A DNA stretch of 64,000 nucleotides from a virus, in the IMG/VR virus record IMGVR_UViG_3300045988_111426; one strand, 5' to 3'. The position numbers were made by a program, and so were the translations under genes. Positions 9,983-63,360 of this stretch are shown piece after piece. Positions within the stretch are counted from its first letter, which is position 1, and each line of letters starts with the position of its first letter. A model generated the notes under the pieces. It had not been told where the DNA came from, ran no database searches, and worked only from the letters and a program-made list of their open reading frames with translations.

Positions 9983-9999
9983 ATATTTGCTTATTTACC
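9983..9999 (-). promoter_or_regulatory. late-type upstream motif GGTAAATAAGCAAATAT
   Basis: 10 nt upstream of the ATG of the 810-aa gene. Confidence 0.5.
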
Positions 10000-10724: not shown

Positions 10725-10737
10725 TCTCCGAACTCAA

Positions 10738-10823
10738 GGAAGGTACTTTCCTTGCACTCTCTTTTTCCTTGAATACTTTCACACCCAAGAACTTCATAGA
10801 GCGCAAGGAAAGTACCTCGTCTT
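10738..10823 (-). repeat. dispersed ~85-bp inverted-repeat element, copy 1 (reverse orientation)
   Basis: Arms GGAAGGTACTTTCCTTGCACTC and GAGCGCAAGGAAAGTACCTCGTCTT. Between convergent genes, next to a terminator. Confidence 0.8.
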
Positions 10824-10928
10824 CATTTTAGTTTTAAAGACAACTTTCTCATGAAAACAATCGGGTGAATGATGAAAAAGAGAACGATAAATCTTAAAAT
10901 TGTTATCATACTTTTAGGTGGAAGTTAA

Positions 10929-12579: not shown

Positions 12580-12689
12580 TATTCCGTGGTTATTATTTCT
12601 TTATGTAACTGACCGATACGAATTGGGCTACAAACCTCGAGAGAGAGATCCGTAGACCAACAACCCTTATAAAAGTAATCAACAAATCG

Positions 12690-12761
12690 TACCCCAGCCA
12701 AGAATCGAACTTGGATTGTCGGTTTAGAAGACCGATGTTCTATCCATTGAACTACTAGGGC
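12690..12761 (-). tRNA. tRNA-Arg (anticodon UCU)
   Basis: Manual cloverleaf, 72 nt. Acceptor GCCCTAG/CTGGGGT, D arm GTTC-AATGGATA-GAAC, anticodon arm TCGGT-CTTCTAA-ACCGA, T arm CCAAG-TTCGATT-CTTGG. No encoded CCA. Confidence 0.85.
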
Positions 12762-14680: not shown

Positions 14681-14812
14681 TTTCTTAATCCAGATTAATA
14701 TTTATTAAAACGTTTTCTTATTTACAAGACGGTGAAAACGTTGTGGGGAACGATCCCGAAATTGATCGTTCCCCACTCGTCAACAACAAAAATGTTCAAC
14801 AACAAATCCGAA

Positions 14813-20000: not shown

Positions 20001-20848
20001 TACAGCCTTACTTGATCCTTTATATCGGAATCGACAGCATTGGCATCTGCAGTTAAAGTCTGAGGTATGTTTGCAATGGCCAGAGTTGGATCTCCATAAG
20101 CATGCTTCCCAATACCAAGACCAAATCTGTAATATCTCGTGCTGTTATTCGATTCCCCAGATGAAGGAATGAACTGACCAAGAAGTATACGATCGGCAGT
20201 TTGTAAAATATGGTCACGGACTGTAGAGTTTTCAATATCGGTGTTTATATGGAAAGCAGATCCACCTCCGCCAGTTGATCCACCTCCGCCTCCTCCAGTG
20301 CCTGGTGATGTTCCTCCACCACCACCTCCGCTCAGTGCTGAGTAGTTTATCTTTCTTGTAACAAATATCTCAGAATCAGTCACCGATTCGACAGTAAGCA
20401 GGTCACCATTTTTCGTGAATATAACATCACCCACACGATACTTCAGAAGTTCGATTCTTTCATTTTCCTTTTCTGGTGTATTGGGAATAGAAATCGAATA
20501 TGAGTTGTACTGTATTTCACGAAGGTCACTGGTGTTCATCTGTAGGAACTTGACGGACTGTGATGCTTGTACCACAGTGTTCCCATCACGCCCATCGCTA
20601 CCATCACGCCCAGGTTTACCGATCATCTTTATTCGTGATCCTTCAGCACCGAGAATTTCGGAATATTTCCCATCTGCTATGTTTCTAAGGATCAGAGTAG
20701 TCATGAAGTCCACAAGATCAGTTCTTTCATGCCTGAGTATCTGATCAAAGTTGTGGTTCAGTTTTTCTACAAGATTCAGTACAGAATCGTCTTGTTCTAT
20801 GCTGAACAGTGTCATATCTTGGATGTCAGTTCCGCTATATTTTCCCAT
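17072..20848 (-). CDS. giant tail-fibre-like virion protein
   Basis: 1258-aa ORF with GGTAAATAAGCAAATAT 13 nt upstream. Short collagen-like GKPGRDGSDGRDGN. Gly-rich linker SGGGGGGTSPGTGGGGGGSTGGGGS. Confidence 0.75.
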   Translation of the reverse strand: MGKYSGTDIQDMTLFSIEQDDSVLNLVEKLNHNFDQILRHERTDLVDFMTTLILRNIADGKYSEILGAEGSRIKMIGKPGRDGSDGRDGNTVVQASQSVKFLQMNTSDLREIQYNSYSISIPNTPEKENERIELLKYRVGDVIFTKNGDLLTVESVTDSEIFVTRKINYSALSGGGGGGTSPGTGGGGGGSTGGGGSAFHINTDIENSTVRDHILQTADRILLGQFIPSSGESNNSTRYYRFGLGIGKHAYGDPTLAIANIPQTLTADANAVDSDIKDQVRLYFRKNSQQSFDFVSPRHWASARYVDLYENDKSKGLVTGQRLRFSLENSDGEDTNQPFIELLTNKRTNDSHSTISTHTLSVIDRHNKRAVVIDNRQRFVIKSMIADFSKSILYTNERNDVLATEYETFSAPSIKTNTISPNSGTMVSIGSGNGLSADILKTKKLQGVSGAMSLSDNTVLTVDAGSDIRIGDTYIRQWISDTNSKVGELDRKSIKSNTLFSDIFVDVREQKLDLRTLGFGLFSPSDGKNMTISTNTLSKTGEGSSSNVYVSTFIKGDAGVFHNKYSPLHRLFGVFAIGDTDTFADTHYDTHETDKNTLIGIGAWGHGKLSSQSISLESVKSRKIADYEEYVKIPAFNLSGGNIDYSTITFPSQNKDEGWKKAGNVIVMKPSTNLISQSEKYVFESEKKVKTYYVKLHNEIYDDTRDKFKPVGFKIQDGWSCFEYDINDVSTYQKTIFDKVRVDVSDQTKNHIAGNRRGAGVPYGEGNIFSTIINYDAEGRPIKRKPGGNSMNNFMLNATSFMAFIGHYDAQNGSRGLLEYEDIKPAVYQDFVHEVQRNFYYMNAMDLIAEGMNSGSQRITPDKFQRVLVNGGTKCETFDSYIESKQNRRSRKTAFVFSPIKTRSIVKLSPFSDRSLNHVPCVMTTFINDHSVTDESQELLSNDMFSLKVVGDVVHMDIYVECSLLQVKKPSVSDFYAYQRHVYYTDAYEPGTDSSMALKTILFNSKLTECLDEWIMLDSMIGWAGRVLGGNKGHNAVYKKSHVHNVKLSDQTPLQESYGFSMSMLIPSIFMPVTDIMFSDNTTLYTDGMCKVSMTPFRDGRESIHGSMLKDVIQNRKANIDSNRIFRNVRFDDRLLEFSGYTSLYKKGVGYTQGYSADCGYAPNKQSYTSIVVEFENPNYIDKYSRESNLVDPQSGVKFKKISLTWVKPGISEMLERMQMSDRTRTGGFSLDNEISVEAQKIYGEEMYKQMEKYLDNE

Positions 20849-20861
20849 GCTTTTTCGGAGG

Positions 20862-20878
20862 ATATTTGCTTATTTACC
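20862..20878 (-). promoter_or_regulatory. late-type upstream motif GGTAAATAAGCAAATAT
   Basis: 13 nt upstream of the ATG of the 1258-aa gene. Identical 17-mer to the copy at 9983. Confidence 0.5.
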
Positions 20879-20890
20879 TTCCGAGAGCGG

Positions 20891-23800
20891 TTACACAAGA
20901 CCCACGGAAATGGTCATCTCAAGGTGAACATTTTCTATCGTATGGTGATGAATCTTTATGACGTTCTGATCGAGAGAAATTGAGAAATCTTTGACGACTT
21001 CACCATTTGAGAGCATCTTCGAATCCGAGATCTTGTAGAGCATTCCGATATTCTTTGCGCAATATTCTTCCACATAGACACGAGGATCGTCGATTGTGCC
21101 AAGACGATCAACGGCATCGATCATGTCCTGCTTGAACTTTTCCAAGAAAGAATCGATGAGGTTAATCTCGGAAGAATAGTTCCCTTGATCATCGACATTC
21201 CAATTCTCGACAGTGATCTCGAACGAATTGGGGAGGTTGAGGATCTTCGATGAGAACATACTCGTGAAATCTGCAAAGTGCTTAGATTTGTCATAAGGGA
21301 TAGATGTGTCGCCAAAAAGTGGGAGACTTGTGACCTTTAATGACTTATGGTCGTTGTATACGAACTCTGGGATTCGGATATCTCCGAGCACAAATGCAGT
21401 ATTCTCCTTGCGGATGTCGTAGTTGATCGTCTTGTCGAATGTGTCCTTAGAGTCATTGTAAGACATTCGATAATGGTCGATCATAGAAGAGACTTTCGGA
21501 TTGATAGCAGTCGATAGCTTACTGATCTTTGGATCATACTTTCCGCCATATCTCTTCATAGAGCCGAGATCAATAGGTCGGTGGAACTTGAACTGGAGGT
21601 CATCTTGTCTTCTATCTTCTGTATATGAGAAGTTGTTATTTTCTACTATCTCACGAAGAAGAGAGAAGTTGACAAACTCGTGCTGGAAATTGTGGAAGTT
21701 TTTACCACCACCAACGAGATACCACTTCAAGGACTTCTTCTTAGGATCTAACGATTGGATATGCTGTACAAGAGACTTTGGCGTAAGTGTGGTGATGGCT
21801 TCCATCGATGGCTTGTTTGCTTCAATATAAACAACACCATCATCAATCGTGAAGAACTCATGCGAGTTGTCCCATTTCTTGACTGATTTGCCGATAACGA
21901 TCGAATTGTGGTTATAGTCTTTGATTGTCAGAGATCCGTGCTTAAGATAAATCCCAAGAGAATCACACTTCAAGGATCTGAACATTACGAGATTCTTTCT
22001 ATTAGTTTCCAGATCTTCTTCCACACCGATTATCTCCATGAACGTTTTATCATCTTTCAGAGAGTACCATTCGTGAAGTTTACGTGGACTACCATTGATC
22101 ATAGCATCGATTTCAATAGAACTGTCGGTATAAGACACGAACCGCATATCGAGTTCTATACCAAACATCTGGTCATATTCCTGCATCTTGATAGTGTCAT
22201 TGTTCTGAGAATCGACACCAATCTTCAGAAGACCACTGACACCTTCAAAGTCGATTCTATCACCATCGATTATCTTCCCATCTTTAGACTTGGTGGATTG
22301 AGACCCCATTGTGTAAAGATTAAGGAAGGAGAGGTTGTTTTTCGATATCTTGTAGTCATTGTAAGAAATCGTACAGATCATGACGATATTCTTGAATCGA
22401 CGATTTCTTACAATGCGTATGGAAGATTGACCATTTGGATTTACGTTGAGGATCGAGGAGAATCTGTAACCGTCGATGTCGTTCTTGGAAGTGATACTAA
22501 TAAGCACACCTCTGAAGAAAGTGACATAGTCACCGACATTGTTCTTCGAGATTATCGACCAATTTTCGGAAGGATCAGTCTTTGAATATGCCCCATTTCT
22601 AAAGCTATAACCGAAGACAGTGAAGTATTCTTGGAAGTAGTCATAACTCGAGAAACAATACTTCAGTTCGTTGAATGGTTCAGAGAAGTATGATGACATT
22701 TTCCCATCTTCCTCCACGAGTGGATGTCTCGAAATTGGGAAGAACTCATGGGTGTAATACTTCGGATTAGGATAGGAGATGTTGAATGACGGAGAGAAGT
22801 TGTCAGTACCGAACTCTTCCGATACGTTCAGACGATACTCATCCAGACGTACATCTTTAAACTCAGAAACCCACTTACAGACGGACTGTAGAGAAACAAG
22901 AGGTCTCTTCTCATCAATCGATACGACATCATAACCGAGGAACTTTGACAAATCGGGATCTGTCTTCTGCTCTTCTGGTGTATATTGTCCAAGTTCAATG
23001 AGTATGTCGTTTCTCTTGGTCTTCGTCTTGAGCATGAAGTCGAAGTCACAAATGTCGATAAAGTTCACTACAGACAAGGTGAACTCGGTCTGATCATAAA
23101 CCTGTATGACGTTCTTTGTCTGATAGATTGGTGTGTCCGAGATTATGTCGAACATGTCAACATGTCGTCTCTTCTTGACGTGCTTGATTCGTTCGAAGTG
23201 ATTCCCATTCTTCACGTATTTGCCTACACAGTTGAGAGCATTAGAATGGGACATCATGAAGTTGTTATCACTTCTTGAGAATTTCTCATACAAGAGCGAA
23301 AGTGTTCCATCGGCAGAGGTTATCTCGAACTCAATAGAAGGTCTTGTTGAGTTTTCGACGATTATTCTATCGTGGTCATTATCCACGAAGACTTTCACAC
23401 CATACAGACGGAGAGCATCAACGACCCATTCAAGACACGAAGCAATTCTCTGAAGGACTTCTTCTTTAGATCCGAATGGGTTGTAATATGTCAAGAACCA
23501 TCCATCTCGAGACCATTTCTCATAACCATAGTCACCCCTTTCAAGATTCGAGAGTGTGTTGGAGAGTATCGTTTCTGATTCCTTACCATCAATGAAGATC
23601 TTTATAGACGTGTTGATCATCGGCTTTCGTGAAGCGTCGTAGATGATCTCGTTGTAAGCAGGTTCTTGCTCTTGATCTCCCTGCAAACGTATGTTGAAGA
23701 TATTCGTTGTTGTGTATTGTGGGAAATCTTTCTTTCGAAAGTTCTTGATATCAACAACTGCGTCATCAGTCTTCATAAGACAAAGATCGACATCTTTGAA

Positions 23801-24637
23801 GTTGTCTTGTATCTTCTGTATTACGACATCATTCAGATCGGAATAAAGATAAGTCGTGAGGTTTATGTCATCAGCATAAAGACCGAAGTAATTCTCATAC
23901 TTAAGTTCCGTTGAAGGATCATCAAACAAGAACTCGAAGTTGAAGAGCTTGTGGGATACAAGCGAATGTCTCTTGTAACCTTCAGTGATCCATTTGTCAA
24001 ACTCATAGACACTTTGAGCACCACCGACGAAGTCTTCGATTGATTCTGATACTTGAACAATTGATGATTTTTCCACCGATATACCAGTGTAAGTGACGTG
24101 TTTTTGTATGAAGTCGCATTGCACATGGGAATTTTGGAAAAGTGGGAAATCGGTGAGTTTCTCGAAGTACTTGCCTATTGGGGACTTATGAAGATCGATT
24201 ATCTTCAAGATTTGGCAGTCACGAAGTCTGTCCTTCTTCCCATCTGACTTGTAGATGATGAAGTACTTCGGAAGTTTTTCACCAATGTAAAGTGGGGCAA
24301 AAATCGAAAATTCCTCATCATAAAGCATCGACGTACATCTCTGAACTTTGTAAAGATAGGTCTGATCAACCATGTCCGCATATTTCTCATAGACATAACC
24401 ATCGGGTTTCGTGGGGGATTCGTAGAATATGTTCCGAGGAACATCAGCGAAAACTTTTGAGATATCATCAAAAGGTGCTGATGATACACTAAGTGGTTTC
24501 GTATAAGCTATGCTCGACAAGGTATCATTAACTGGTATTGTGGAAATCTGGAAATCTCCATCTGACTTCACTACAAACTTGATATTGCCAGTTAATAATG
24601 GGTTTGTTCTAACAATTGCTGATGATCTTTTAGACAT
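20891..24637 (-). CDS. large hypothetical virion protein
   Basis: 1248-aa ORF with TGTAAATAACGAAAC 12 nt upstream. No recognisable enzymatic motifs. Confidence 0.7.
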   Translation of the reverse strand: MSKRSSAIVRTNPLLTGNIKFVVKSDGDFQISTIPVNDTLSSIAYTKPLSVSSAPFDDISKVFADVPRNIFYESPTKPDGYVYEKYADMVDQTYLYKVQRCTSMLYDEEFSIFAPLYIGEKLPKYFIIYKSDGKKDRLRDCQILKIIDLHKSPIGKYFEKLTDFPLFQNSHVQCDFIQKHVTYTGISVEKSSIVQVSESIEDFVGGAQSVYEFDKWITEGYKRHSLVSHKLFNFEFLFDDPSTELKYENYFGLYADDINLTTYLYSDLNDVVIQKIQDNFKDVDLCLMKTDDAVVDIKNFRKKDFPQYTTTNIFNIRLQGDQEQEPAYNEIIYDASRKPMINTSIKIFIDGKESETILSNTLSNLERGDYGYEKWSRDGWFLTYYNPFGSKEEVLQRIASCLEWVVDALRLYGVKVFVDNDHDRIIVENSTRPSIEFEITSADGTLSLLYEKFSRSDNNFMMSHSNALNCVGKYVKNGNHFERIKHVKKRRHVDMFDIISDTPIYQTKNVIQVYDQTEFTLSVVNFIDICDFDFMLKTKTKRNDILIELGQYTPEEQKTDPDLSKFLGYDVVSIDEKRPLVSLQSVCKWVSEFKDVRLDEYRLNVSEEFGTDNFSPSFNISYPNPKYYTHEFFPISRHPLVEEDGKMSSYFSEPFNELKYCFSSYDYFQEYFTVFGYSFRNGAYSKTDPSENWSIISKNNVGDYVTFFRGVLISITSKNDIDGYRFSSILNVNPNGQSSIRIVRNRRFKNIVMICTISYNDYKISKNNLSFLNLYTMGSQSTKSKDGKIIDGDRIDFEGVSGLLKIGVDSQNNDTIKMQEYDQMFGIELDMRFVSYTDSSIEIDAMINGSPRKLHEWYSLKDDKTFMEIIGVEEDLETNRKNLVMFRSLKCDSLGIYLKHGSLTIKDYNHNSIVIGKSVKKWDNSHEFFTIDDGVVYIEANKPSMEAITTLTPKSLVQHIQSLDPKKKSLKWYLVGGGKNFHNFQHEFVNFSLLREIVENNNFSYTEDRRQDDLQFKFHRPIDLGSMKRYGGKYDPKISKLSTAINPKVSSMIDHYRMSYNDSKDTFDKTINYDIRKENTAFVLGDIRIPEFVYNDHKSLKVTSLPLFGDTSIPYDKSKHFADFTSMFSSKILNLPNSFEITVENWNVDDQGNYSSEINLIDSFLEKFKQDMIDAVDRLGTIDDPRVYVEEYCAKNIGMLYKISDSKMLSNGEVVKDFSISLDQNVIKIHHHTIENVHLEMTISVGLV

Positions 24638-24649: not shown

Positions 24650-24664
24650 GTTTCGTTATTTACA
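24650..24664 (-). promoter_or_regulatory. late-type upstream motif TGTAAATAACGAAAC
   Basis: 12 nt upstream of the ATG of the 1248-aa gene. Confidence 0.45.
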
Positions 24665-28714: not shown

Positions 28715-28730
28715 ATATTTCGTTATTTAA
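28715..28730 (-). promoter_or_regulatory. late-type upstream motif TTAAATAACGAAATAT
   Basis: 10 nt upstream of the ATG of the 482-aa gene. Overlaps the stop of the Hint ORF. Confidence 0.45.
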
Positions 28731-34305: not shown

Positions 34306-34320
34306 GGTAAATAACGAAAT
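34306..34320 (+). promoter_or_regulatory. late-type upstream motif GGTAAATAACGAAAT (plus strand)
   Basis: 14 nt upstream of the ATG at 34335, directly after a terminator. Confidence 0.5.
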
Positions 34321-39485: not shown

Positions 39486-39500
39486 GATTTCGTTATTTAC
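39486..39500 (-). promoter_or_regulatory. late-type upstream motif GTAAATAACGAAATC
   Basis: 11 nt upstream of the ATG at 39474. A divergent partner, TAAATAAAGG at 39526-39535, precedes the gp25-like gene. Confidence 0.45.
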
Positions 39501-41385: not shown

Positions 41386-41400
41386 AAGTATGTCTTCTGA

Positions 41401-41493
41401 TAAAGACGAGGTACTTTCCTTGAACTTGGAGGTACTCGAAGCTATGAAAACAACACCAAACTTTTCAGAGTGCAAGGAAAGTGCCTTCCTTGA
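41401..41493 (+). repeat. inverted-repeat element, copy 5
   Basis: TAAAGACGAGGTACTTTCCTTGAAC ... GAGTGCAAGGAAAGTGCCTTCCTTGA. Ends 6 nt from the stop of the truncated terminase ORF. Confidence 0.8.
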
Positions 41494-41499
41494 AGTCGG

Positions 41500-51483: not shown

Positions 51484-52209
51484 TTATCTTAGGATTTCAC
51501 ACTCTCCAGTCTCGGTATCCAAGATGAATGCTTCGTGTTGATTAGAATCTGTGAAATAGAGGTTCTTACCATTGTCCATAGTCACACGATTAGAATCGAT
51601 ATTCGAGAAATCGAAAGCAGTATGACCAACTATTTGGTGATAATCTCCGTAAGGGTTTTCCGAGAGAGCATTTGGTCGAATCCAGATTGGAGACTGATGA
51701 ATGTTGTCACCATATTGCGATGTTGTCCGTTCATCTTTTCGGAACTCGACAATCCTTGGAGATTGCTTGAACACACCATTGATATCTTCGACACTTGAAT
51801 CTTCTCCAACCATTTCCTTGAACCAAGTCTCGGAGACCCCAGCATGAGAGAAAAGATAACCGTCAGATTCATAGGAGAGAACCAAAGTTCCTCGATCTAC
51901 AAGCTCATCAAGGAGACTTCCTACAAGGACAAATGTCGTGGTGGAAAATCCGCTGTATCTTCCCATGCAAAACTTTGTATAGTGGAAGTCATGGTTTCCG
52001 ATAAGCATTATGACTTTTTCCACTCCAATAGATTCTCGAAGAGCGAGGATCTTCTTGAAGTTCTCTGAAGCCACCTGCGCAGAGACTTTCTTGAATGAAT
52101 CGAAATAGTCCCCCATAAAAACGATCTTCTCGACACTGTCTTTGTTTTTTTGAACATGTTCTATCCAAAAGTCGCTTTCGTGAATGTCACCAATTATGAG
52201 AATCTTCAT
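51484..52209 (-). CDS. calcineurin-like metallophosphoesterase (PPP-type Ser/Thr phosphatase-like)
   Basis: 241 aa. Motifs IIGDIHE, FMGDYFD, IGNHD, SHAG and VGHT. Confidence 0.7.
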   Translation of the reverse strand: MKILIIGDIHESDFWIEHVQKNKDSVEKIVFMGDYFDSFKKVSAQVASENFKKILALRESIGVEKVIMLIGNHDFHYTKFCMGRYSGFSTTTFVLVGSLLDELVDRGTLVLSYESDGYLFSHAGVSETWFKEMVGEDSSVEDINGVFKQSPRIVEFRKDERTTSQYGDNIHQSPIWIRPNALSENPYGDYHQIVGHTAFDFSNIDSNRVTMDNGKNLYFTDSNQHEAFILDTETGECEILR

Positions 52210-52245
52210 TTATCGTCTAATCGTTGTTTATTGATTGTCTTTACC

Positions 52246-52270
52246 TATCTGCATTATCTTATAGCAGATA
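52246..52270. promoter_or_regulatory. palindrome TATCTGC-n11-GCAGATA in a divergent promoter region
   Basis: Lies between the divergent starts at 52209 (-) and 52297 (+). The same ATCTGC/GCAGAT core recurs four times at 62544-62697. Confidence 0.3.
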
Positions 52271-52296
52271 AACAACAAAACATTTCTTCAGAAAGT

Positions 52297-53946
52297 ATGA
52301 AAAAATTGAGGACTGTAGGTTCTTCGGCTATATTCGACATAGAGAAATCGCCAATGGAGATCGAGTATGTTATGGAGAAGGTTGAAGGTGAAAACTCATC
52401 TTCCTTGCTTCTCCGAGACTTTACGACTTCTTCCGATGGGAAAAATTGGGATTCGTGGAAATCGTATAACAGAGATTCTCTTGTCGGTGTTCACGGAAAA
52501 CATATCAAAGTCAGATACTCTCTTGTGGAGAACTTCTTGGGATCGACTATATCGATCGAGAAACCACTAATCAAGTACAAATCTCCACAGACCACTTTTA
52601 TAGATCAAGGAGAATCGTTCCTGCTGTCTGGTGTGGATTCACTTGCTGATTATTCTCGAATGTCAATAGGTCTTCAGAAATTGGAGATCGACATGAACTA
52701 TTACATCCAGCAACATTCAGCGGTGAGTGTTAAGTATTGGCACACAAATCCAGATCTGAAGTCCAAAGATGAGTTCTTAAGAGAATATTCTCTGCAGAAT
52801 GTCGTCGACATGAAGATCTTAAAAGTTGTCTTGAAAGACAACCAGATCCCAGAACCTAAGCATGAGTTCTCACAATGGGGGATCGAGTTTGAAAAACTGG
52901 AAGTTTACTTTGAGAAGACCTATTTCGAAGAAGTGTTTGGGATAAAAGAAGAACCAAGAAAAATGGACTACCTTTACTTCTCGGAGATTAACAGAATGTA
53001 CATGATCCAAGACGTTTATCTCAATCATGGGATAGGTGAACATGGAAGCTTCTATGTTTGTACAATCAAGAAGTATGAAGACATGACGAATGTCGACAAA
53101 AGGGATGATGATCTTGAGTTCTTAAAAGAACACGTGAAGATTGACGATTATTCAGATGAACAAATAGACGAAATGGAAGACATGCAGAACACGAAGCAAA
53201 ATCTGGACAACGTAGGGGTTGATGATCTTCTTCATTCAGAGTTTGATCCAAGTCTTGTTAAATCTGAAAGATGTGATTATGATAACAATGGGAACTCACT
53301 TGGAAAGTTCATCTACGACATGTCAGTAGGGAAAACTGGAGAAACAGCTATCAAATACCTCCCGAGAGTTCATTCACGGCAGGGGATTTCCTTCATGTTC
53401 TGGATAGAACTTCTCGACGACAGTCTTTCGAAAGTGATCAATGTAGATGGGAAACCATTCTCAATTTCCGTTTCAACAAAGAACATAGTCGTCAGTGGTG
53501 AACATTCGTTCTCTTTGGAAATTGATCTTGAGCGGAGAAAGTTCTATTGTGTTGTCATAGGAATCAACAATGAACACCACTTTATGAGGTTCAATATCTA
53601 TCAAGTAAACGATGGAGATTCAACAATTCTCAAGAGTGTCTTCGACCATACAGAACCAATGGAGAAGGTCATGAAACTTCTGTACAGAGAAAGGTCATCT
53701 GTTTTGGAGATTGATGGACAAGTCGCACTAATTACTGGGAAATACGCCATTCGACAGATTCGAATCGCAAATCACGAAGTTGATGAAACTTACCATTCTT
53801 ACATTATGTCGAAACAAATGGTGAAGACACCTTCGAAGTTCTTCATAATCGATGATTGTCGTGATCCATTGAACTTGGATAAAAAGTCAAGATCACTTTT
53901 CAGAGAAATCAACGAAAGTTTCCTTAAAAGAAGAACCATTCACTAA
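52297..53946 (+). CDS. hypothetical protein
   Basis: The first ATG at 52297 (MKKLRTVGSS...) gives 549 aa. The track start 52150 would overlap the divergent gene. Terminator hairpin downstream. Confidence 0.65.
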   Translation: MKKLRTVGSSAIFDIEKSPMEIEYVMEKVEGENSSSLLLRDFTTSSDGKNWDSWKSYNRDSLVGVHGKHIKVRYSLVENFLGSTISIEKPLIKYKSPQTTFIDQGESFLLSGVDSLADYSRMSIGLQKLEIDMNYYIQQHSAVSVKYWHTNPDLKSKDEFLREYSLQNVVDMKILKVVLKDNQIPEPKHEFSQWGIEFEKLEVYFEKTYFEEVFGIKEEPRKMDYLYFSEINRMYMIQDVYLNHGIGEHGSFYVCTIKKYEDMTNVDKRDDDLEFLKEHVKIDDYSDEQIDEMEDMQNTKQNLDNVGVDDLLHSEFDPSLVKSERCDYDNNGNSLGKFIYDMSVGKTGETAIKYLPRVHSRQGISFMFWIELLDDSLSKVINVDGKPFSISVSTKNIVVSGEHSFSLEIDLERRKFYCVVIGINNEHHFMRFNIYQVNDGDSTILKSVFDHTEPMEKVMKLLYRERSSVLEIDGQVALITGKYAIRQIRIANHEVDETYHSYIMSKQMVKTPSKFFIIDDCRDPLNLDKKSRSLFREINESFLKRRTIH

Positions 53947-53975
53947 ACGAAGAGACTTATCAACTAAAAAGAAGA

Positions 53976-54011
53976 ATGTGGGGAGAAGATGTTCGAAACT
54001 TCTCCCCACAT
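53976..54011 (+). terminator. terminator hairpin
   Basis: ATGTGGGGAGAAG..CTTCTCCCCACAT after gene 52297-53946. Confidence 0.6.
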
Positions 54012-54094
54012 CTGTATTCAAACATTGACCTTCCAGTCATATTCAGAAAAATTGACTGGAAAAATGACTGGAAATGTGTTATTAAACTATCACA

Positions 54095-54179
54095 TTAAAG
54101 GAAGGTACTTTCCTTGCACTCGAAATAGCCCGAGAATATGAAAATAGCGGAAAATGGATCAGAGTTCAAGGAAAGTACC
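54095..54179 (+). repeat. inverted-repeat element, copy 6 (locus unit A)
   Basis: TTAAAGGAAGGTACTTTCCTTGCACTC..GAATATGAAAATAGCGGA..GAGTTCAAGGAAAGTACC. Confidence 0.85.
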
Positions 54180-54353
54180 AAGGAAAGCCAAGGAGAGGTA
54201 TTCCGTGAGACTATGGGTCATCGTCCGAAGGCAATAGACCATTTCGAAGGATTATGGAAGACTATGGAAGACTATGAAAGACAATGACGATTGTTGAAAG
54301 ACAACGGAGGATTATCAAAGGATTATGAAGAGACAATAGTTCTGATTTGTTAA

Positions 54354-54438
54354 TTAAGACGAGGTACTTTCCTTGCGCTCTGAGATATTCAAGAATATGA
54401 AAATAGCGGAGACTATACTCGAGTTCAAGGAAAGTACC
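54354..54438 (+). repeat. inverted-repeat element, copy 7 (locus unit B)
   Basis: TTAAGACGAGGTACTTTCCTTGCGCTC..GAATATGAAAATAGCGGA..GAGTTCAAGGAAAGTACC. Confidence 0.85.
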
Positions 54439-54646
54439 TTCCTGTAATCAGGAGACATATTCTCGAGGATTATGGGTTTCTGTCGGAAGACAATCAAAGA
54501 CAATGACTGATTATGGAAAGACAATGATGATCATCAAAGGACTATTGAAAGACAATGACTAATCATCGAATACTATGAACGATAATCGGAAGACAATGAA
54601 GGATTATCAAAGGATTATTGAAAGAAAATGGCTAAAAATGGTCGAA

Positions 54647-54731
54647 TTAAAGAGAGGTACTTTCCTTGTCCTCGAAGACATTCAGTGGGGTAGAAATAGC
54701 GTCAAATAGATCAGAGCGCAAGGAAAGTACC
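54647..54731 (+). repeat. inverted-repeat element, copy 8 (locus unit C)
   Basis: TTAAAGAGAGGTACTTTCCTTGTCCTC..GTAGAAATAGCGTC..GAGCGCAAGGAAAGTACC. Confidence 0.85.
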
Positions 54732-55409
54732 TTCCTGTAATCAGAAGAGGTATTCTGTTGAATGGTGGGTTTCTGTCGGAAGACAATGACTATTGTCAAT
54801 GACTATGGAAAGACAATCGACTATGGAAAGACAATAGAGGATCGTGAAAAGATCATCAAAGACTTTGAAAGACAATCAAAGACAATAGCTGATTCTTTGA
54901 AGACTTTGGAATCTATTGATTAATCATTGAAAAGATCATCACTTCTTTGAAAATTTCTCTAAAGATTGATTGATAGACTGATGACTTTTGTCTGAATCAT
55001 AGATTTCCGCCCCTTTAATGATAATCGTTTTGAAGACAAAAGATGATCGTTAAATGGTTTTATTGTGGACGAGGATTGTTGAAAATCAAAATCAGTCTTT
55101 TTTGAATCCCAGAATAGACCAGAACAATTGAAAGAGACCATTGATGATTCCCGAGATATTTATGATTCTTGGAAAGACTATGATTCTTGGAAAGACAATG
55201 GAGGATTATTCAAAGAGAGATTGAAATTGAAAGATAATCATTCCAAGAACGGAGATTTGTTAAGAATTGTTAACTGATTTTGAATGGAAAGTTGAAAATT
55301 GGAGGATTCATCAGACAGATAATCATACAGATAATCAGATTATCCTCGGAATTTGCCGACAAACCGTGCGTATACACGAAACTTTAAAAAAACGCGCGAA
55401 TTCCCGTGT

Positions 55410-55438
55410 ATACCCGTATACGCATGCGGTATTTTTTT
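55410..55438 (+). terminator. terminator-like hairpin plus T7 run
   Basis: ATACCCG..CGGTAT stem followed by TTTTTTT. Confidence 0.35.
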
Positions 55439-55562
55439 CCAGTTTTATCGTAAATACAAAGTATTTACAACTGGTTTGGGGTCAGCCTTGGCACGATAGT
55501 GCCAAGCCAGGCTGCCCCAAACCATACATTGAGCGCAGAAACATGTCGTGCGCATGTTTTTA
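55439..55562 (+). ncRNA. candidate small structured RNA in the GC-rich core of the repeat locus
   Basis: Three consecutive hairpins: 55439-55474 (CCAGTT..GTAAATAC/GTATTTAC..AACTGG), 55473-55523 (about 21 bp, GC-rich, GGTTTGGGG..CCCCAAACC), and 55539-55559 (AAACATG/CATGTTT) followed by a T-run. No ATG-initiated ORF. Confidence 0.35.
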
Positions 55563-55799
55563 AATTTCCAGTTTAAACCAAAAGTACCAGGTGCGTGTTA
55601 GGGAACTTTAAAAAAACGCATGCGTGAAACTCCAAAAAAAGCGCACGCACGCAAAAAACTTTAAAAAAGACCTGTGTCAAATCCCCCGAACAGATTAACA
55701 CCTTTTAACACCTTAAAACCGATATTCTCTTTCCAAGATATTCCTCCCATAAGCCACAGAGACCATAACCCTCGAAAATATGTCTCCTTGGCTTTCCTT

Positions 55800-55884
55800 G
55801 GTACTTTCCTTGAACTCGAGTATAGTCTCCGCTATTTTCATATTCTCAGATATCTCAGAGCGCAAGGAAAGTACCTTCCTTTAA
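55800..55884 (-). repeat. inverted-repeat element, copy 9 (locus unit D, reverse)
   Basis: The reverse complement reads TTAAAGGAAGGTACTTTCCTTGCGCTC..GAATATGAAAATAGCGGA..GAGTTCAAGGAAAGTACC. Confidence 0.85.
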
Positions 55885-56087
55885 TTCAATTATTTTCGAT
55901 CATTGTCTCGATAGTCATTGATGATCTTCCATTGTCCTTCATTATTGTCATAGTCTTTTGATAATCCTTGGAAATAACCATTGTTTTCGGAAGATGATTC
56001 ATAAACCTCAAAAATGTTCAGAATCGATATTCCCATGTGAACCGAGGAGACCATAATAATCAGAAAATACTCTCCTTGGCTTTCCTT
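55885..56087 (-). repeat. same short-repeat family in reverse orientation (CATTGTC cores)
   Basis: CATTGTCTCG, CATTGTCCTT, TATTGTCATAG and CCATTGTTTTC lie between units D and E. Confidence 0.6.
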
Positions 56088-56172
56088 GGTACTTTCCTTG
56101 CGCTCTGATCTATTTTCCGCTATTTTCATATTCTTGAACCTCTCAGAGCGCAAGGAAAGTACCTCTCTTTAA
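56088..56172 (-). repeat. inverted-repeat element, copy 10 (locus unit E, reverse)
   Basis: The reverse complement reads TTAAAGAGAGGTACTTTCCTTGCGCTC..GAATATGAAAATAGCGGA..GAGCGCAAGGAAAGTACC. Confidence 0.85.
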
Positions 56173-56239
56173 AGCGTATCAATTGATAATACACTTTAAC
56201 ACATTTCTTCAATCTTCAATCATCCCTCAAACAACAATC

Positions 56240-56306
56240 CGCCAATCTCCGATGAATTGGTTCTTTTTGATAAAAAAGAACCAATTCATCGGAGATTGGC
56301 GTTTTT
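56240..56306 (+). terminator. exceptionally long hairpin plus T-run at the right edge of the repeat locus
   Basis: CGCCAATCTCCGATGAATTGGTTCTTTTT-GA-TAAAAAAGAACCAATTCATCGGAGATTGGCG (about 30 bp with one mismatch) followed by TTTTT. Confidence 0.6.
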
Positions 56307-56395
56307 GGCATTAATAACTGTGATGGTCGTGAATAGCTTCCAATAATCCTCCAAAATCATCAATAATCATCATTGAAACTAACATCTTGACATTC

Positions 56396-56409
56396 ACAAT
56401 AAGAACACC
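56396..56409 (+). promoter_or_regulatory. class-2-like motif ACAATAAGAACACC upstream of tRNA-Lys
   Basis: 39 nt upstream of the tRNA-Lys 5' end. A similar AAATAATAAGACTT at 61694-61707 precedes the tRNA-like/tRNA-Tyr pair. Confidence 0.3.
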
Positions 56410-56447
56410 GAAGCAATCATTCAGAAGAGATTGTTTAAGGTTGGTTC

Positions 56448-56520
56448 GATTTCATAGCTCAACAGGTAGAGCACTGCACTTTTAATGCAGGGGTTGTGGG
56501 TTCGATCCCCACTGGAATCA
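56448..56520 (+). tRNA. tRNA-Lys (anticodon UUU)
   Basis: 73 nt. Acceptor GATTTCA/TGGAATC, D arm GCTC-AACAGGTA-GAGC, anticodon arm CTGCA-CTTTTAA-TGCAG, T arm GTGGG-TTCGATC-CCCAC. Confidence 0.9.
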
Positions 56521-56541
56521 CAAAAAAGAACAAGAAACACA

Positions 56542-57156: not shown

Positions 57157-57230
57157 GTTCCAATAGCTCAGTCGGTAAGAGCAACTGACTCATAATCAGT
57201 AGGTCGTAGGTTCAATCCCTACTTGGAACA
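57157..57230 (+). tRNA. tRNA-Met/Ile2 (anticodon CAU)
   Basis: 74 nt. Acceptor GTTCCAA/TTGGAAC, D arm GCTC-AGTCGGTAA-GAGC, anticodon arm ACTGA-CTCATAA-TCAGT, T arm GTAGG-TTCAATC-CCTAC. Confidence 0.9.
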
Positions 57231-57243
57231 CTCAAGAAAAAAT

Positions 57244-58709: not shown

Positions 58710-58724
58710 TGGTTGATCATAAGC

Positions 58725-59867
58725 ATGTTAAGAGCAATTAAAGTAAGGTTATATCCAAACAAAGCGCAGGAACAAGAACTTAACAAGGTTCTTGGTGCTT
58801 ATCGTTTTGTCTATAACCACATGCTCGATAAAAGAAAGACTGCTTATGAAACTGACAAGACAAGTCTAAGCGAAAACGATCTATCAAAGTACTTCCATGG
58901 AACATTGCTGAAAGATGAACAACATGTTTGGATAAAAGAACAGAACACAAAGGTGATGAACCAAGCAATCAAACAGATGGTCGGTGCTTATCAAAACTTC
59001 TTCAATCATCATAAAGGATTTCCAAAGTTTAAATCAAAGAAAGACAAACAATCGGCATTGTTTCCTCGTAATGCCATTTCAAAGAGGAACACTTTCGAAA
59101 CGAAGCACATAACTTTAATCACTTCCCTTAAGAACCTCAGATTCCGTTGTTCTGACTTATATCACAAACGCTTGCAGAAATACAAGGACAACATAAGAAG
59201 CGCAACTCTCTCGAAAACCAAGAGTGGGAATTTCTTCTTGTCGATTCTTGTAGACATTCCCGAAGCGGAATTTGTGAAATTCGGAAAGACCAACAAACAA
59301 GTTGGTATTGACCTTGGCGTGAAAGATTTCGTTATAACCTCCGATGAAACTGTGTTTGAAAACAAACACTTCTTCAAGAAGGAGGAAAAGAAGATGATCA
59401 AACTTCAACGTCAATTATCCAGAAAGGTCAAAGGTTCAAACAATAGGAACAAACAGAGAATCAGACTTGCAAAAGTGATTGCGAATATAACGAACAAGAA
59501 AGAGAACTACATCCACTCAGTTGTGAACGAGATATTGAAATCATACGACACGGTGTTCATGGAAGACTTGAATATTAAAGGGATGCTTGGAAATCGTTAT
59601 CTTGCGAATGCTATCCAAGAGTCTGGATTTTATCGGTTCAAGTCGATATTGCAATATAAGGCTCTTATGAATGATAAGCGAGTTGTTCTTATCAATAGGT
59701 TCTATCCAAGTTCAAAGACTTGTTCGTGTTGTGGTTACAAGAAGAAAGACTTGAAACTCGGTGATAGGTTTTGGACTTGTCCCGAATGTGGTGAATATCA
59801 CGACAGAGATATAAACGCTTCGAAGAACATTCTTTTTGAAGGACAAAGAAAACTTCGAACTGGCTAA
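58725..59867 (+). CDS. tnpB: TnpB (OrfB_IS605-type RuvC nuclease), no associated TnpA
   Basis: MLRAIKVRLYPNKAQEQELNKVLGAYRFVYNHML is a typical TnpB N-terminus. RuvC-I GIDLGVKDF, RuvC-II VFMEDLNIKGM, Zn ribbon CSCCG..CPECG, RuvC-III HDRDINASKNI. Confidence 0.85.
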   Translation: MLRAIKVRLYPNKAQEQELNKVLGAYRFVYNHMLDKRKTAYETDKTSLSENDLSKYFHGTLLKDEQHVWIKEQNTKVMNQAIKQMVGAYQNFFNHHKGFPKFKSKKDKQSALFPRNAISKRNTFETKHITLITSLKNLRFRCSDLYHKRLQKYKDNIRSATLSKTKSGNFFLSILVDIPEAEFVKFGKTNKQVGIDLGVKDFVITSDETVFENKHFFKKEEKKMIKLQRQLSRKVKGSNNRNKQRIRLAKVIANITNKKENYIHSVVNEILKSYDTVFMEDLNIKGMLGNRYLANAIQESGFYRFKSILQYKALMNDKRVVLINRFYPSSKTCSCCGYKKKDLKLGDRFWTCPECGEYHDRDINASKNILFEGQRKLRTG

Positions 59868-60140
59868 GATATAAAAAAGATGAATAGGTGTTCGTAACAC
59901 CGAATTTACGCTTGCGGACTGCTCTCTTATGGATGACCGAACCTCGTGTTCCTAAAAAGTAATGGTAGGTTGAAACAAGAAGTGAGAACTGGATAAAACG
60001 CAGATTTTTCACATACGATAAGGCTTTTACACATCCAAGGGAAGATTTGTCGATAGGTATGAAGCTTGTAAAATAGCCAAAGAATCTGGCCAAATAGAGG
60101 TCGATGATGAAAATATGGTTCTTTACTCGGAAGACCTCTA
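59800..60140 (+). ncRNA. candidate omega (re)RNA scaffold plus guide of TnpB; boundaries not determined
   Basis: A 289-nt ORF-free tail follows tnpB. Hairpins GGTGTTCGTAACACC at 59887-59901 and AGAGGTC..GACCTCT at 60096-60139. By analogy, omega RNAs span the tnpB 3' end and the downstream region. Confidence 0.3.
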
Positions 60141-60156
60141 CTGAATCACAAGATCA

Positions 60157-60624: not shown

Positions 60625-60681
60625 TAAGTCTGTCACACACAAATCCCTAAACAGAAGAATAGTTAAAACTTGAATCGAAAC

Positions 60682-61635
60682 ATGGTAAGGAAGGCAACTA
60701 ATAAGTTACTTCAGAAGGCTAAAAAGCAGAAGAACGACGAGTTCTATACGCAACTTATTGACATCGAGAGAGAATTGCGACATTATGAAAGCTATTTTAA
60801 GGGGAAAGTTGTGTATTGCAATTGTGATGATCCTTTGACGGGTAACTTTTTCAGATACTTCGTTTCTAACTTCAAAGCATTAGGACTTAAGAAGGTGATC
60901 GCATCTTGTTATAAGGAAAACGGTCATGGCTTTTTCTTTGAATACACAGGGACAGAACTTGCTGATGCAGATCCAAAGACCGCCAATGTTGTCTACTTCA
61001 AGGGCGATGGCGACTTTCGTAGCCAAGAAAGTATTGCCTTACTGGAACAATCTGACATAGTTGTTACCAATCCACCATTTTCGTTGTTCCGTGAGTATGT
61101 TGCACAATTAACAAGATATGATAAGCTCTTTCTCATTATTGGGAATATCAACGCCATCACTTATAAAGAGATTTTCAAGCTCATTCAAGATGGTAAGGTA
61201 TGGCTTGGTGTGAATATTGCGAGAGGAATTTCTGGGTTTGTTGTACCAGCTCATTATGAACTCTACGGAACAGAAACAAGGATAGACGAATCTGGTAACA
61301 GGGTTGTATCTACCAACAATTGTCTGTGGCTTACGAATTTGGACAATTTTACGCATCGTAAAGAGATCTCGCTTACCAAAAGCTACTATGGGCACGAACA
61401 TGAATATCCCAAATACGACAATTATGATGGTATAAATGTTGATAAGACTAAGAACATACCACGAGATTACAGTGGTTATATGGGAGTTCCGATAACATTC
61501 TTACATAAATTCGATCCACGCCAATTTGAGATTGTGGGTTCCAGAAAGGGAAACGATGGGAAATGTTTATCTGTGAATGGGAAATGTTCTTATTTTAGGA
61601 TAATCATCAAGAAGAAACAAACTACGACTAAATGA
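60682..61635 (+). CDS. N6-adenine DNA methyltransferase, EcoRI-methylase-like family
   Basis: The ATG at 60682 gives 317 aa. NDEFYTQLIDIERELRHYESYFKGKVVYCNCDDP plus catalytic IVVTNPPFSLFREYV (NPPF). No cognate nuclease recognised nearby. Confidence 0.75.
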   Translation: MVRKATNKLLQKAKKQKNDEFYTQLIDIERELRHYESYFKGKVVYCNCDDPLTGNFFRYFVSNFKALGLKKVIASCYKENGHGFFFEYTGTELADADPKTANVVYFKGDGDFRSQESIALLEQSDIVVTNPPFSLFREYVAQLTRYDKLFLIIGNINAITYKEIFKLIQDGKVWLGVNIARGISGFVVPAHYELYGTETRIDESGNRVVSTNNCLWLTNLDNFTHRKEISLTKSYYGHEHEYPKYDNYDGINVDKTKNIPRDYSGYMGVPITFLHKFDPRQFEIVGSRKGNDGKCLSVNGKCSYFRIIIKKKQTTTK

Positions 61636-61796: not shown

Positions 61797-61880
61797 AGAG
61801 GTGTCGCATAGTGGCAATTGCAAGTGACTGTAAATCACTCGTCTTAAAAGGCTTCGTAAGTTCGATTCTTACCACCTCTA
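61797..61880 (+). tRNA. tRNA-Tyr (anticodon GUA), class II with long variable arm
   Basis: 84 nt. Acceptor AGAGGTG/CACCTCT, anticodon arm AGTGA-CTGTAAA-TCACT, variable arm CGTCTTAAAAGGCTTC, T arm GTAAG-TTCGATT-CTTAC. Confidence 0.85.
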
Positions 61881-62241
61881 CAAAAATAAAAAGAAAAAGC
61901 GACTCGAGGGCTACTTGAAAAGATACACAGTAGCTATCTTCACGGAATCTTTCATAGAGTTGGGACTTTCTTGAAGATATCGCAATATTGAACAACAACT
62001 CTATCACTCGGCTTGGTCTTTGATTAATGGGACTATAGGTCGATAGGTAAAGAACAACCTTGATAGCGTGTAAGATTATCAGAAAAGTCTCTTGTGCAGA
62101 GTGACAAAGCCCTCATTGGAGAAGCTAAAATCCCTAGTGGTTTGAACCATGATGATGATACGGCTGTTGAGTAGATTGAGAGAGCGTTTAGGATTTATAG
62201 TGATGCTCCACCAACCTCTCTGGGCAAGTAAAAAACTCGTT

Positions 62242-62326
62242 GGAGAGATGGCAGAGCGGTCTATCGCATCAGTCTTGAAAACTGAAGGTCGGAAACGATC
62301 CGTGGGTTCGAATCCCACTCTCTCCT
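62242..62326 (+). tRNA. tRNA-Ser (anticodon UGA), class II
   Basis: 85 nt. Acceptor GGAGAGA/TCTCTCC, anticodon arm TCAGT-CTTGAAA-ACTGA, long variable arm AGGTCGGAAACGATCC, T arm GTGGG-TTCGAAT-CCCAC. Confidence 0.85.
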
Positions 62327-62771
62327 CAAAAATGACTATTGGATTCACAGCAAGAAGATATCGCAATTGCTCCTAAAAATTACGTAGTCCACTGGGAAGT
62401 CATCAAAACAAAAGCGTTCTTTTAAAGAATTCTCAATGTCGAGATTTATAGACATACAGCAAACATAATTATTCATAACTGGCTCATAGACCGTCTGTAG
62501 TAAAGATTTCGACGAAAACATTAAGAAAACATCCGTTTAGATAGCAGATTTCCTGCATTGAAAATCTAAGGTTAATGGCTTCGTGCTCCTGTCGGCACTA
62601 TCTGCAGTCATCTAAACGGTTATCAATCATAGTCTCCGATTTGCAGATATTCAGCAATGAATCTTCATTATCGTTTGTCTACGTGTTAAACGTCTGCAGT
62701 ATAATCGGAATCCATAAAGTGATGACACTATACTTCGCCTCCTACAATAGGTTCACCACTTTTTGTTGTTA

Positions 62772-63218: not shown

Positions 63219-63250
63219 GCATATTGGGATTAAAATCAAGATTTGTTGAA

Positions 63251-63344
63251 TTAAAGAGAGGTACTTTCCTTGTCCTCGAAGATATCTGAGAATATGAAAA
63301 TAGCGGAAACTATACTCAAGCTCAAGGAAAGTACCTCTCTTTAA
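63251..63344 (+). repeat. inverted-repeat element, copy 11 (most symmetric copy)
   Basis: TTAAAGAGAGGTACTTTCCTTG ... GAATATGAAAATAGCGGA ... CAAGGAAAGTACCTCTCTTTAA, with 22-bp perfect terminal inverted repeats. Confidence 0.85.
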
Positions 63345-63360
63345 TCAGGAGAGTACTTTC

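Follow-up and report, generated by a model that had tools for sequence, protein, structure and literature searches.

A conserved noncoding locus

The 64,000-nt stretch of viral DNA analyzed here (the window; IMG/VR record IMGVR_UViG_3300045988_111426) contains a gene-free locus of ~2.5 kb, locus A (53947-56447), that extends from the stop codon of the 52150-53946 gene to a tRNA-Lys gene at 56448. The locus holds palindromic repeat units in two orientations, arrays of short repeats in helical phase, a core with covarying hairpins, and a terminator-like hairpin at either flank. It is conserved noncoding DNA, and we propose tentatively that it may be an origin of replication.

No open reading frame (ORF) between 53947 and the tRNA-Lys gene is longer than 98 amino acids (aa). 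When the last 940 nt of the flanking gene were compared with three relatives, mismatches were distributed by codon position as 19/9/76, 24/10/69 and 32/11/83, without a single gap; in the locus, mismatch counts by frame were flat (120/135/121) and 65 of the 76 gaps were not multiples of three. The longest ATG-initiated ORF on the minus strand of the locus (54959-55141, 60 aa) is not present in relatives. The description of the locus as ORF-free in a first-pass annotation of this DNA is therefore borne out by comparative codon-position and gap tests, and translated small ORFs, which that annotation had raised as another possible source of the repeats, are rejected by the same statistics and by the loss of the ORF in relatives. 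Its claim that this is the only long noncoding stretch went too far: the locus is the longest noncoding gap of the window, but gaps of 1217 nt (with two tRNA genes) and 725 nt are also present.

When 50,697 phage records in INPHARED were searched at the DNA level for near and distant similarity, neither the locus nor the phage was matched. In Rfam 15, only tRNAs exceeded the gathering thresholds, and permissive E-values added only miRNA-like matches to a 29-bp hairpin at the right end of the locus. The palindromic element and the core were both without match in 185,579 bacterial species genomes. The locus is real, elaborate and conserved, and by sequence it matches no described system; the first-pass annotation likewise could not match it to one. 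In kind it comes nearest to the origins or control regions of phages and plasmids.

About five near-complete genomes (145-152 kb) and additional fragments came out of the pattern scans, and within this clade of uncultured phages the whole locus is conserved at 75-90% identity. Comparison of synteny, which had been suggested earlier, revealed conservation in the clade but no comparable locus at the same positions in more distant relatives. The protein neighbors include an SbcCD-like nuclease, a helicase, an NAD-dependent ligase, NADAR, TnpB and an EcoRI-type methylase, and a 2340-aa protein shares 33-39% identity with Bacteroides phage proteins. To judge from these sequences, the source is probably a large (~150-kb) uncultured phage with a Bacteroidota bacterium as host. 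Related metagenome contigs carry ENA/MGnify-type accessions that we take to be human-gut samples.

Repeat units and a genome-wide family of palindromic elements

Five units, three forward and two reverse, were recovered as originally described. Each is built on an element composed of GGTACTTTCCTTG, 50 nt and CAAGGAAAGTACC, that is, two 13-nt arms at a fixed spacing of 63 bp. A palindromic element had been correctly recognized at these sites, but its length is 76 bp, or ~98 bp with extended arms, and not 85 bp. On the plus strand, forward unit 1 (54094-54235, element 54104-54179) has an asymmetric center, GAATATGAAAATAGCGG, and a AAGGAAAGCCAAGGAGAG-type tail, and is 90% conserved; forward unit 2 (54352-54494, element 54363-54438) has the tail TTCCTGTAATCAGGAGAC..TATTCT..GGGTTTCTGTCGGAAGACAAT, and forward unit 3 (54646-54787, element 54656-54731) has a tail of the same type. 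On the minus strand, reverse unit 1 (55777-55886, element 55800-55875) carries a AAGGAAAGCCAAGGAGAC tail as read on that strand, and reverse unit 2 (56070-56172, element 56088-56163) is likewise followed by a tail. The conserved tails noted previously are present in two types, TTCCTGTAATCAGRAGA..TATTCT..GGGTTTCTGTCGGAAGACAATG (type 1) and AAGGAAAGCCAAGGAGAG (type 2), and the tail motif TAATCAGGAGA occurs only together with elements. Elements of the locus are 84-91% identical among relatives, and the short-repeat and palindrome motifs of the locus include GAAGACAATG repeats and ACGCATGCGT palindromes.

The first-pass annotation missed the dispersal of the element over the genome. The arm motif has 22 matches in the window against 1.2 expected. 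Outside the locus, each of three full copies (10742, 41410 and 63260) is situated between convergent genes, and there are half copies at 15793, 26763 and 35849; when the flanks of 10742, 15793, 26763, 35849 and 41410 were read, a canonical long-stem terminator hairpin lay beside all five. The first full copy (10733-10825, minus strand) and the second (41400-41495, plus strand) directly adjoin such a hairpin, and the first has orthologous copies in contigs L027, L037 and L034. The third (63250-63353, plus strand) has fully palindromic extended arms (TTAAAGAGAGGTACTTTCCTTG) and a TAATCAGGAGAG tail. Overall, arm sites number ~20 per genome and are intergenic, next to terminators and not specific to the locus.

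In a set of 76-95 distinct copies drawn from the window and related contigs, the length of the element is constant at 76 nt, rarely 75 or 78. The arms are almost invariant, a mutated arm is not compensated in its partner, and G-U-type mismatches are equally frequent on the two strands (19 vs 19). The center is asymmetric (..TATGAAAAYAGC..) and diverges freely, up to about 50%. This sequence pattern fits two protein-recognition sites exactly six helical turns apart and not an RNA hairpin; a hairpin or RNase III site acting as RNA was rejected given the lack of compensation and strand bias in the arms. The orientation of elements relative to neighboring genes is mixed, and a simple promoter reading of the element consequently fails. 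The elements were also discarded as polar markers toward locus A or its paralogue, locus B (see below), as their orientation is mixed.

A single extended arm lies upstream of a gene in L152 (167 kb, 29% guanine plus cytosine [GC], only 43% identity in the family-B DNA polymerase, PolB), and another is located 110 nt upstream of PolB-C in a 76% relative, the contigs of which break inside the arm. A scan with a 14-mer of the arm was unspecific, with L152 and L121 among the matches listed. In L121 (7729-7804), a 76-bp element with the same 13-nt arms and a different, internally palindromic center is placed between two genes of a contig of 46% GC, with a Shine-Dalgarno-type sequence upstream of the start of the next gene. 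A translated search of this stretch of L121 revealed no similarity to the window.

Terminal inverted repeats, fixed length, multiple intergenic copies, hypervariable arrays, and a TnpB gene only 2.5 kb away could be taken as the marks of selfish palindromes resembling miniature inverted-repeat transposable elements (MITEs), accompanied by slippage-prone satellites and without function for the phage. We consider this very improbable. Element copies occupy orthologous positions in relatives without presence/absence polymorphism, and no target-site duplications are visible at their flanks, which together indicate that the family has not been recently mobile. Furthermore, the arms are invariant while the centers diverge, an arm is kept in the relative with 43% PolB identity, and the core is 92-100% conserved. 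A MITE linked to an autonomous element was rejected, since the flanks of the sole transposase-like gene (TnpB, 58713-59867) are unrelated to the arms.

Phased arrays and a candidate unwinding element

Short-repeat arrays occupy the space between the units. On the plus strand, array 1 (54236-54345) is composed of GGAAGACTATG, GAAAGACAATG and GGATTAT and is purine-rich; array 2 (54495-54640) has the lowest conservation in the locus (39-62% identity); array 3 (54788-54969) shows indels of 10 or 20 nt among relatives; and array 4 (55100-55339) contains GGAAAGACTATGATTCTTGGAAAGACAATGG and GATTGAAATTGAAAGATAATC. The reversed array (55887-56050, minus strand) contains CATTGTC, ATAGTC and GATAATCC as written on the plus strand. 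From 54180 to 55340 there are 44 GAYHRT motifs on the plus strand vs 14 on the minus strand, with ~6 expected from the density in the window, and the array motif was found nowhere else in the window. Pairwise distances between these motifs define a ladder at 10-11, 20-21, 30-31, 41, 51-52 and 61-62 bp, with a maximum of phase coherence at 10.3 bp, and this ladder was recovered again in locus B as well as in three other genomes. The forward strand is rich in purines (57-66%) and is directed at the core from both sides.

Array identity among relatives is 39-64%, and copy number varies in steps of 10 or 20 nt. The proposal that repeats lie on one face of the helix is supported by the 10.3-bp phasing, which is maintained across six turns at loci A and B and among relatives in spite of this turnover by indels. 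The constant 63-bp spacing of the uncompensated arms likewise favors a DNA-level arrangement. Since the helical period survives rapid turnover, selection appears to act on DNA geometry, through protein binding on one face or through curvature, and arrays that are hypervariable yet keep phase offer a clear case of selection on geometry and not on sequence.

Other repeats vary as strongly. A perfect 19-nt array (at least 10 copies) forms a 119-bp circularization overlap at the ends of one contig, an (AAAGAC)n run is present in another genome, and a (CTTCAAT)n run has 2 to 9 copies depending on the genome. Hypervariable satellites at the edges of the locus (56206-56222 in the window; L026; L173:9385-9490; L025:1-119; the end of L041) break assemblies and could mislead calls of completeness that are based on terminal overlaps.

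At the end of array 3 lies the stretch of lowest duplex stability in the locus (54910-54969), which ranks among the most unstable 0.2% of 60-bp windows of the 64-kb sequence. This AT-rich stretch is poorly conserved in sequence and adjoins a noncoding block (54980-55075, without assigned strand, ..GTCTGAATCATAGATTTCCGCCCCTTTAATGATAATCGTTTTGAAGACAAAAGA..) that is found in locus A only, is conserved at 91-98% identity and is kept also in the 80% relative L173; an ORF that overlaps the block is not conserved. The stretch 54910-54969 is a candidate unwinding element.

Repeats of this kind are also known from partition sites. The R1 parC centromere has blocks of direct repeats on both sides of a center, and N15 has dispersed centromere sites. 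In a partition or genome-organizing site, a ParR/TubR-like or histone-like protein would coat the phased 10-11-bp repeats, and the dispersed elements would serve as secondary sites. The two blocks of 10-11-bp direct repeats around the core, the dispersal of the sites, and a perfect 11-nt x 10 array in L173 agree with this explanation, which the first-pass annotation had listed. No hallmarks of such a site were found, however: no ParA, ParM, TubZ, ParB or ParR match was found in the window or beside locus B, the covariation of hairpins in the core is not accounted for, and the absence of element and core from the 185,579 bacterial species genomes gives no sign of a plasmid-prophage lifestyle. 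We therefore judge a partition site to be improbable.

A core of covarying hairpins

The core (55340-55700, plus strand) is 92-100% identical across orthologues and 72% identical to the core of locus B. The first-pass annotation described it as much richer in GC and CpG than its surroundings. This is correct relative to the flanking arrays (GC 0.427 vs 0.33; CpG observed/expected 1.51 vs 0.96), but the claim about GC is only local, since the mean of the window is 0.40. Five of the 15 alternating purine-pyrimidine runs of at least 10 nt in the window are located in the core (55365-55378, 55415-55428, 55547-55557, 55616-55626 and 55641-55653), together with A-tract repeats (AACTTTAAAAAAACGC) at 55380, 55604 and 55657. 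No bias of note was detected in EcoRI or GATC sites of the core.

A small terminator-like hairpin followed by T7 (55414-55429) precedes three hairpins, H1 (55450-55468), with an 8-bp stem and a 3-nt purine loop, H2 (55473-55523) and H3 (55539-55559). The linkers ACAACTGGTTTGG and CCAAACCATACATTGAGCGCAG are invariant, and the segment 55380-55580 is conserved at 92-100% identity, above the coding flank. When orthologues, the 80% relative and paralogues were compared, six base pairs of H1 and H2 had changed on both sides and none on one side only. Paired cells of H1 and H2 amounted to 95.7-100% in register vs 17-53% when the 3' partners were slid by one to three columns. H3 is retained in locus B with a different stem sequence. 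Folding of the core relative to shuffles gave z values of -6.3 and -5.6, and its pairs include no G-U pairs that would mark a strand. Covariation of hairpins reveals selection on intramolecular pairing, and the core must accordingly act single-stranded, either as RNA or as unwound or extruded DNA. The first-pass annotation had missed this covariation.

Scans of metagenomes and viruses with the core motif recovered the same clade only, plus a 23-nt exact match to the invariant linker within an unrelated coding region of a metagenome contig (L051:7676-7700), which we judged a chance match. The same verdict was reached for the three matches of a gapped core pattern.

Both flanks of the locus carry terminator-like hairpins, so that the locus could be insulated from neighboring transcription or its own transcripts could end there. 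The left boundary hairpin (53977-54010, without assigned strand) follows immediately after the stop of the 52150-53946 gene, has a 12-bp stem (TGTGGGGAGAAG/CTTCTCCCCACA) and is 84% conserved in relatives; since a T-run lies 3' of the stem on the minus strand, it resembles a bidirectional terminator. The terminal hairpin (56240-56301, plus strand), described previously as a stem of about 30 bp, has a perfect 29-bp stem followed by TTTTT and lies before the tRNA-Lys gene. In several relatives (L019, L004, L026) a perfect stem of roughly 26-29 bp is kept by compensatory changes, and the hairpin resembles the long-stem intrinsic terminators found throughout the phage.

Covarying stems, invariant linkers and terminators on both sides also agree with the main rival of an origin, a hub of noncoding RNA and transcription, which we regard as possible but rather unlikely. 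The units would be promoter/operator cassettes for a phage-specific transcription system and the core a structured RNA of ~90-250 nt, in which H1 would serve as promoter or 5' hairpin and H3 as terminator, with H2 and an invariant single-stranded linker between them. Such an RNA could be a small RNA, a put-like antiterminator leader or a sponge, and the arrays would represent curved upstream DNA or factor-binding enhancers. Hairpins followed by T-runs on the plus strand (55414-55438 and 55539-55565) agree with this explanation, as do the GTAAATA that H1 has in common with a gene-proximal promoter-like motif (GTAAATAACGAAAT), the maintenance of two diverged paralogues upstream of codirectional genes (tRNAs after A, PolB after B), and single extended arms upstream of genes in distant relatives. 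Rfam, however, provided no match, even at permissive E-values. Host-type promoters were not found, with only one Bacteroides -7 motif, which is not conserved, and 17 sigma-70-like matches that are not clearly above the shuffled mean (10.6, standard deviation 3.7); overall, scans for the Bacteroides TAnnTTTG motif and for sigma-70 promoters were uninformative. The 10.3-bp period has no rationale at RNA level, G-U-type mismatches in the arms show no strand asymmetry, and dispersed elements face both ways relative to neighboring genes. In addition, no sequence in the window was found to be a complementary target for the invariant linker, and H3 of locus B is without a U-run. The divergent early promoters that the first-pass annotation had considered do not fit the arrangement, in which units converge on the core rather than diverge.

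Another motif, GTAAATAA[CG][GC]AAAT, often preceded by ATAT, is located 13-25 nt upstream of many start codons (7466-7479, 9985-9998, 14712-14725, 20864-20877, 24650-24663, 28717-28730 and 39487-39500 on the minus strand; 34307-34320 on the plus strand), and where the upstream sequence was read it usually comes right after a long-stem terminator hairpin. H1 shares its first 7-11 nt with this motif. It is a candidate phage promoter class and a better candidate for an ordinary promoter than the element. Two adjacent orphan proteins of ~1250 aa (17072-20848 and 20891-24637, minus strand) have no Pfam or PHROG match and are candidates for highly diverged enzymes, e.g., RNA polymerase subunits, which would bear on transcription in the phage.

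A second, paralogous locus

In four of the five near-complete genomes, the core recurs in inverted orientation 66-69 kb away, with 72% identity over 55400-55602. This locus B, overlooked by the first-pass annotation, contains three forward units, phased arrays and the core, and no reverse units. An ORF of 400 aa that begins ~150 nt beyond its core codes for the polymerase domain of a family-B DNA polymerase and no other part of it, and the gene upstream is divergent. Genes upstream of A and B show no paralogy to each other, and the 598-aa neighbor protein has no relative of solved structure. The split polymerase (L039:1809-3011, minus strand; homologues P0001-P0013), with a ~400-aa polymerase-domain ORF standing alone, was observed in the clade and in relatives down to 31% identity.

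The fifth near-complete genome (3300006251_000001) has the B core only, and its locus A is without equivalents of 54820-55780 and 56000-56180. The loss of core A and retention of B in this genome indicate that core A is dispensable when B is present. In L173 (80% identity), locus A follows the same plan with much turnover and one reverse unit only; its 11-nt array stands in place of the terminal hairpin, and (GTGTGATGC)3 in place of the left part of the core. An invertible switch between forward and reverse units was rejected, given that all assemblies are colinear.

The two loci also bear on whether the region could be a pac/cos packaging region or lie near physical genome ends, as the first-pass annotation had envisaged. 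SPP1 has a two-fold arrangement of pacL and pacR around pacC; the imperfect two-fold symmetry around the core recalls it, and several contigs end inside the locus. These contig ends nonetheless fall in perfect tandem arrays and differ between assemblies, in locus A of one genome and locus B of another, and several independent assemblies run straight through the locus, which speaks against a genome end or a collapsed terminal repeat. Two diverged copies per genome, one with a dispensable core, are an ill fit for packaging, and no terminase gene is found in the neighborhood. No hallmarks of a pac site were found, and we give this explanation only a slim chance. Overall, centromere, packaging or genome-end, and mobile-element explanations are weakly supported or contradicted.

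A putative origin of replication

Locus A is, in our tentative assessment and with somewhat less than an even chance of being right, a cis-acting nucleoprotein control region, most likely a replication origin and possibly one primed by a transcript. Loci A and B would then be two paralogous origins of the phage. A phage protein would bind the arms, and the phased repeats would respond to a second factor or to intrinsic curvature, so that DNA is bent or wrapped on either side of the core. The duplex would then open, and the core hairpins could form on the unwound DNA as priming or helicase-loading signals. Alternatively, they could form in a purine-rich transcript from the flanking units that primes synthesis as an R-loop, a mode of priming known for ColE1, T7, T4 oriF and lactococcal phage c2. 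The convergent units of locus A would give bidirectional initiation, and the forward units of locus B initiation in one direction, toward the PolB gene.

This proposal builds on the phasing, on the fixed spacing of invariant sites, on the low duplex stability of the AT-rich DNA at 54910-54969 beside a 98%-conserved block, on a core that acts single-stranded, and on the presence of two partly redundant paralogous copies among replication genes. Locus A sits in a region of replication and recombination genes (SbcCD, helicase, ligase), and one genome without core A but with core B is as expected of redundant origins. A large noncoding repeat region is a proven origin in PLE, where it spans 2.7 kb (PMC7145576).

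Several observations weigh against an origin. No match to Rep, O or DnaA-type families was found beside loci A and B or among the proteins of the window, nearly all of which are orphans, so that the absence of an initiator is not established. The locus has no DnaA box (TTATCCACA, up to one mismatch). GC skew tracks gene orientation and gives no independent signal of an origin, and gene orientation is not organized around A or B; both were set aside because they are confounded by the coding strand. No comparable locus was detected at the corresponding position after homologues of the 52150-53946 protein (61%, 41% and 39% identity) or before homologues of PolB-C (56% and 43% identity). The position of dispersed elements beside terminators suggests a role related to transcription, and covarying stems with invariant linkers are also a classic signature of functional RNA. 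An origin, as first suggested for this DNA, is still the best single interpretation, but neither an initiator nor DnaA boxes were found to accompany it.

We also entertain, as an unlikely but broader proposal, that the loci are master sites of a new lineage-wide cis-regulatory system. A phage protein would read the 13-nt arms, which are paired at six helical turns, occur at ~20 sites per genome and are found down to 43% PolB identity. The core would belong to a new class of elements that act single-stranded, a novel RNA or an extruded hairpin serving as promoter or priming signal, and the system would couple transcription to the initiation of replication in large Bacteroidota phages.

Hardly any replication origins or early control regions have been mapped in large uncultured gut phages. 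The locus is a concrete, conserved and tractable candidate, with two paralogous loci, a 200-nt core under near-absolute constraint and a network of binding sites across the genome that is defined by the 13-nt arm. Should the locus prove to be an origin, replication of the clade would become measurable from metagenomic coverage, and its parts could be used in vectors or in constructs for interference. A core acting as an RNA or as a hairpin promoter would represent a new class of phage regulatory element.

Other genes near the locus

Four of the five tRNA genes of the window lie just to the right of the locus on the plus strand (Lys-UUU, 56448-56521; Met-CAU, 57157-57231; Tyr-GUA, 61797-61881; Ser-UGA, 62242-62327), mixed with the NADAR, TnpB and methylase genes; the fifth is Arg-UCU (12689-12761, minus strand). 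The TnpB/IS605 OrfB-like gene (58713-59867, plus strand) encodes HTH_OrfB_IS605, OrfB_IS605 and Cas12f1-like TNB domains without tnpA, and the 289-nt gap downstream (59868-60156) could hold an omega-RNA. The EcoRI-type adenine methyltransferase gene (60670-61635, plus strand) was matched at E = 4e-120. The window shows no depletion of GAATTC (38 sites vs ~21 expected); core A contains one such site, as do the core sequences of locus B that were read (L039, L040).

Comparison with known systems

Iteron origins (lambda ori, P1 oriR, SPP1 oriL/oriR, PLE) share with the locus long noncoding DNA with direct and inverted repeats, beside what in the locus would be an easily melted stretch, repeats in helical phase, and a location among replication genes; SPP1, like the phage described here, has two related origins per genome. 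Their repeat unit, however, is 17-22 bp, whereas the locus has dozens of hypervariable copies of a ~10-bp unit, a core of covarying hairpins, no DnaA boxes and no recognizable initiator gene in or beside it. None of these origins resembles the locus in sequence.

The injection-stop-signal (iss) region of T5, a large lytic phage, is a long untranslated stretch dense in repeats, inverted repeats and palindromes that occurs twice per genome and has eight DnaA boxes (bioRxiv 10.1101/866236). The locus resembles it in length, in its repeats and palindromes, and in having two copies. In T5, however, the copies are identical and lie in terminal repeats, whereas loci A and B are 72%-identical paralogues 66-69 kb apart, and the eight DnaA boxes have no counterpart here. 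The T5 region is a look-alike of different function.

Partition centromeres (R1 parC, pSK41 parC, tubC) have 10-12-bp phased blocks of direct repeats around a center, as the locus does. They differ in that they are without covarying hairpins; conversely, no parMR/tubZR-type operon adjoins the locus in the window or is found beside locus B, and there is no evidence of a plasmid lifestyle.

Dispersed cis-elements, such as the stoperators of cluster A mycobacteriophages, the PeSL promoter/stem-loop cassettes of T4-type phages and the RNase III sites of T7, resemble the 13-nt arm with its ~20 intergenic sites by terminators or gene starts. Unlike them, the arms form inverted pairs at a fixed spacing of 63 bp with tandem clusters at two loci, have mixed orientation and show no RNA-type compensation, and their cognate protein is not known.

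The promoters of the virion RNA polymerase of phage N4 are hairpin promoters arranged as three in tandem. No N4-like RNA polymerase was identified here and each core has one such hairpin, not three in tandem. H1 may be likened to the N4 promoters in that DNA can encode it as a hairpin, with a stem of 8 bp and a purine loop of 3 nt, and its stem covaries while its shape is kept.

Transcript-primed origins include those of ColE1, with RNA II, the primary origin of T7, with tandem promoters and an AT-rich region, T4 oriF and oriG, and the c2 origin with its ori transcript. The locus differs in that its units are only putative promoters without a known consensus, no sigma-70 or Bacteroides-type promoter having been found in it, and in that the units of locus A converge from both sides. 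The locus would resemble such origins in its tandem oriented units upstream of a core, in a non-template strand rich in purines, in a structured segment with A-tracts behind it, and in function as a single strand. Its units point toward the core, and the core has the structured single-stranded region of a transcript-primed origin, with six compensatory pairs in H1 and H2 and an H3 that is kept in the paralogue.

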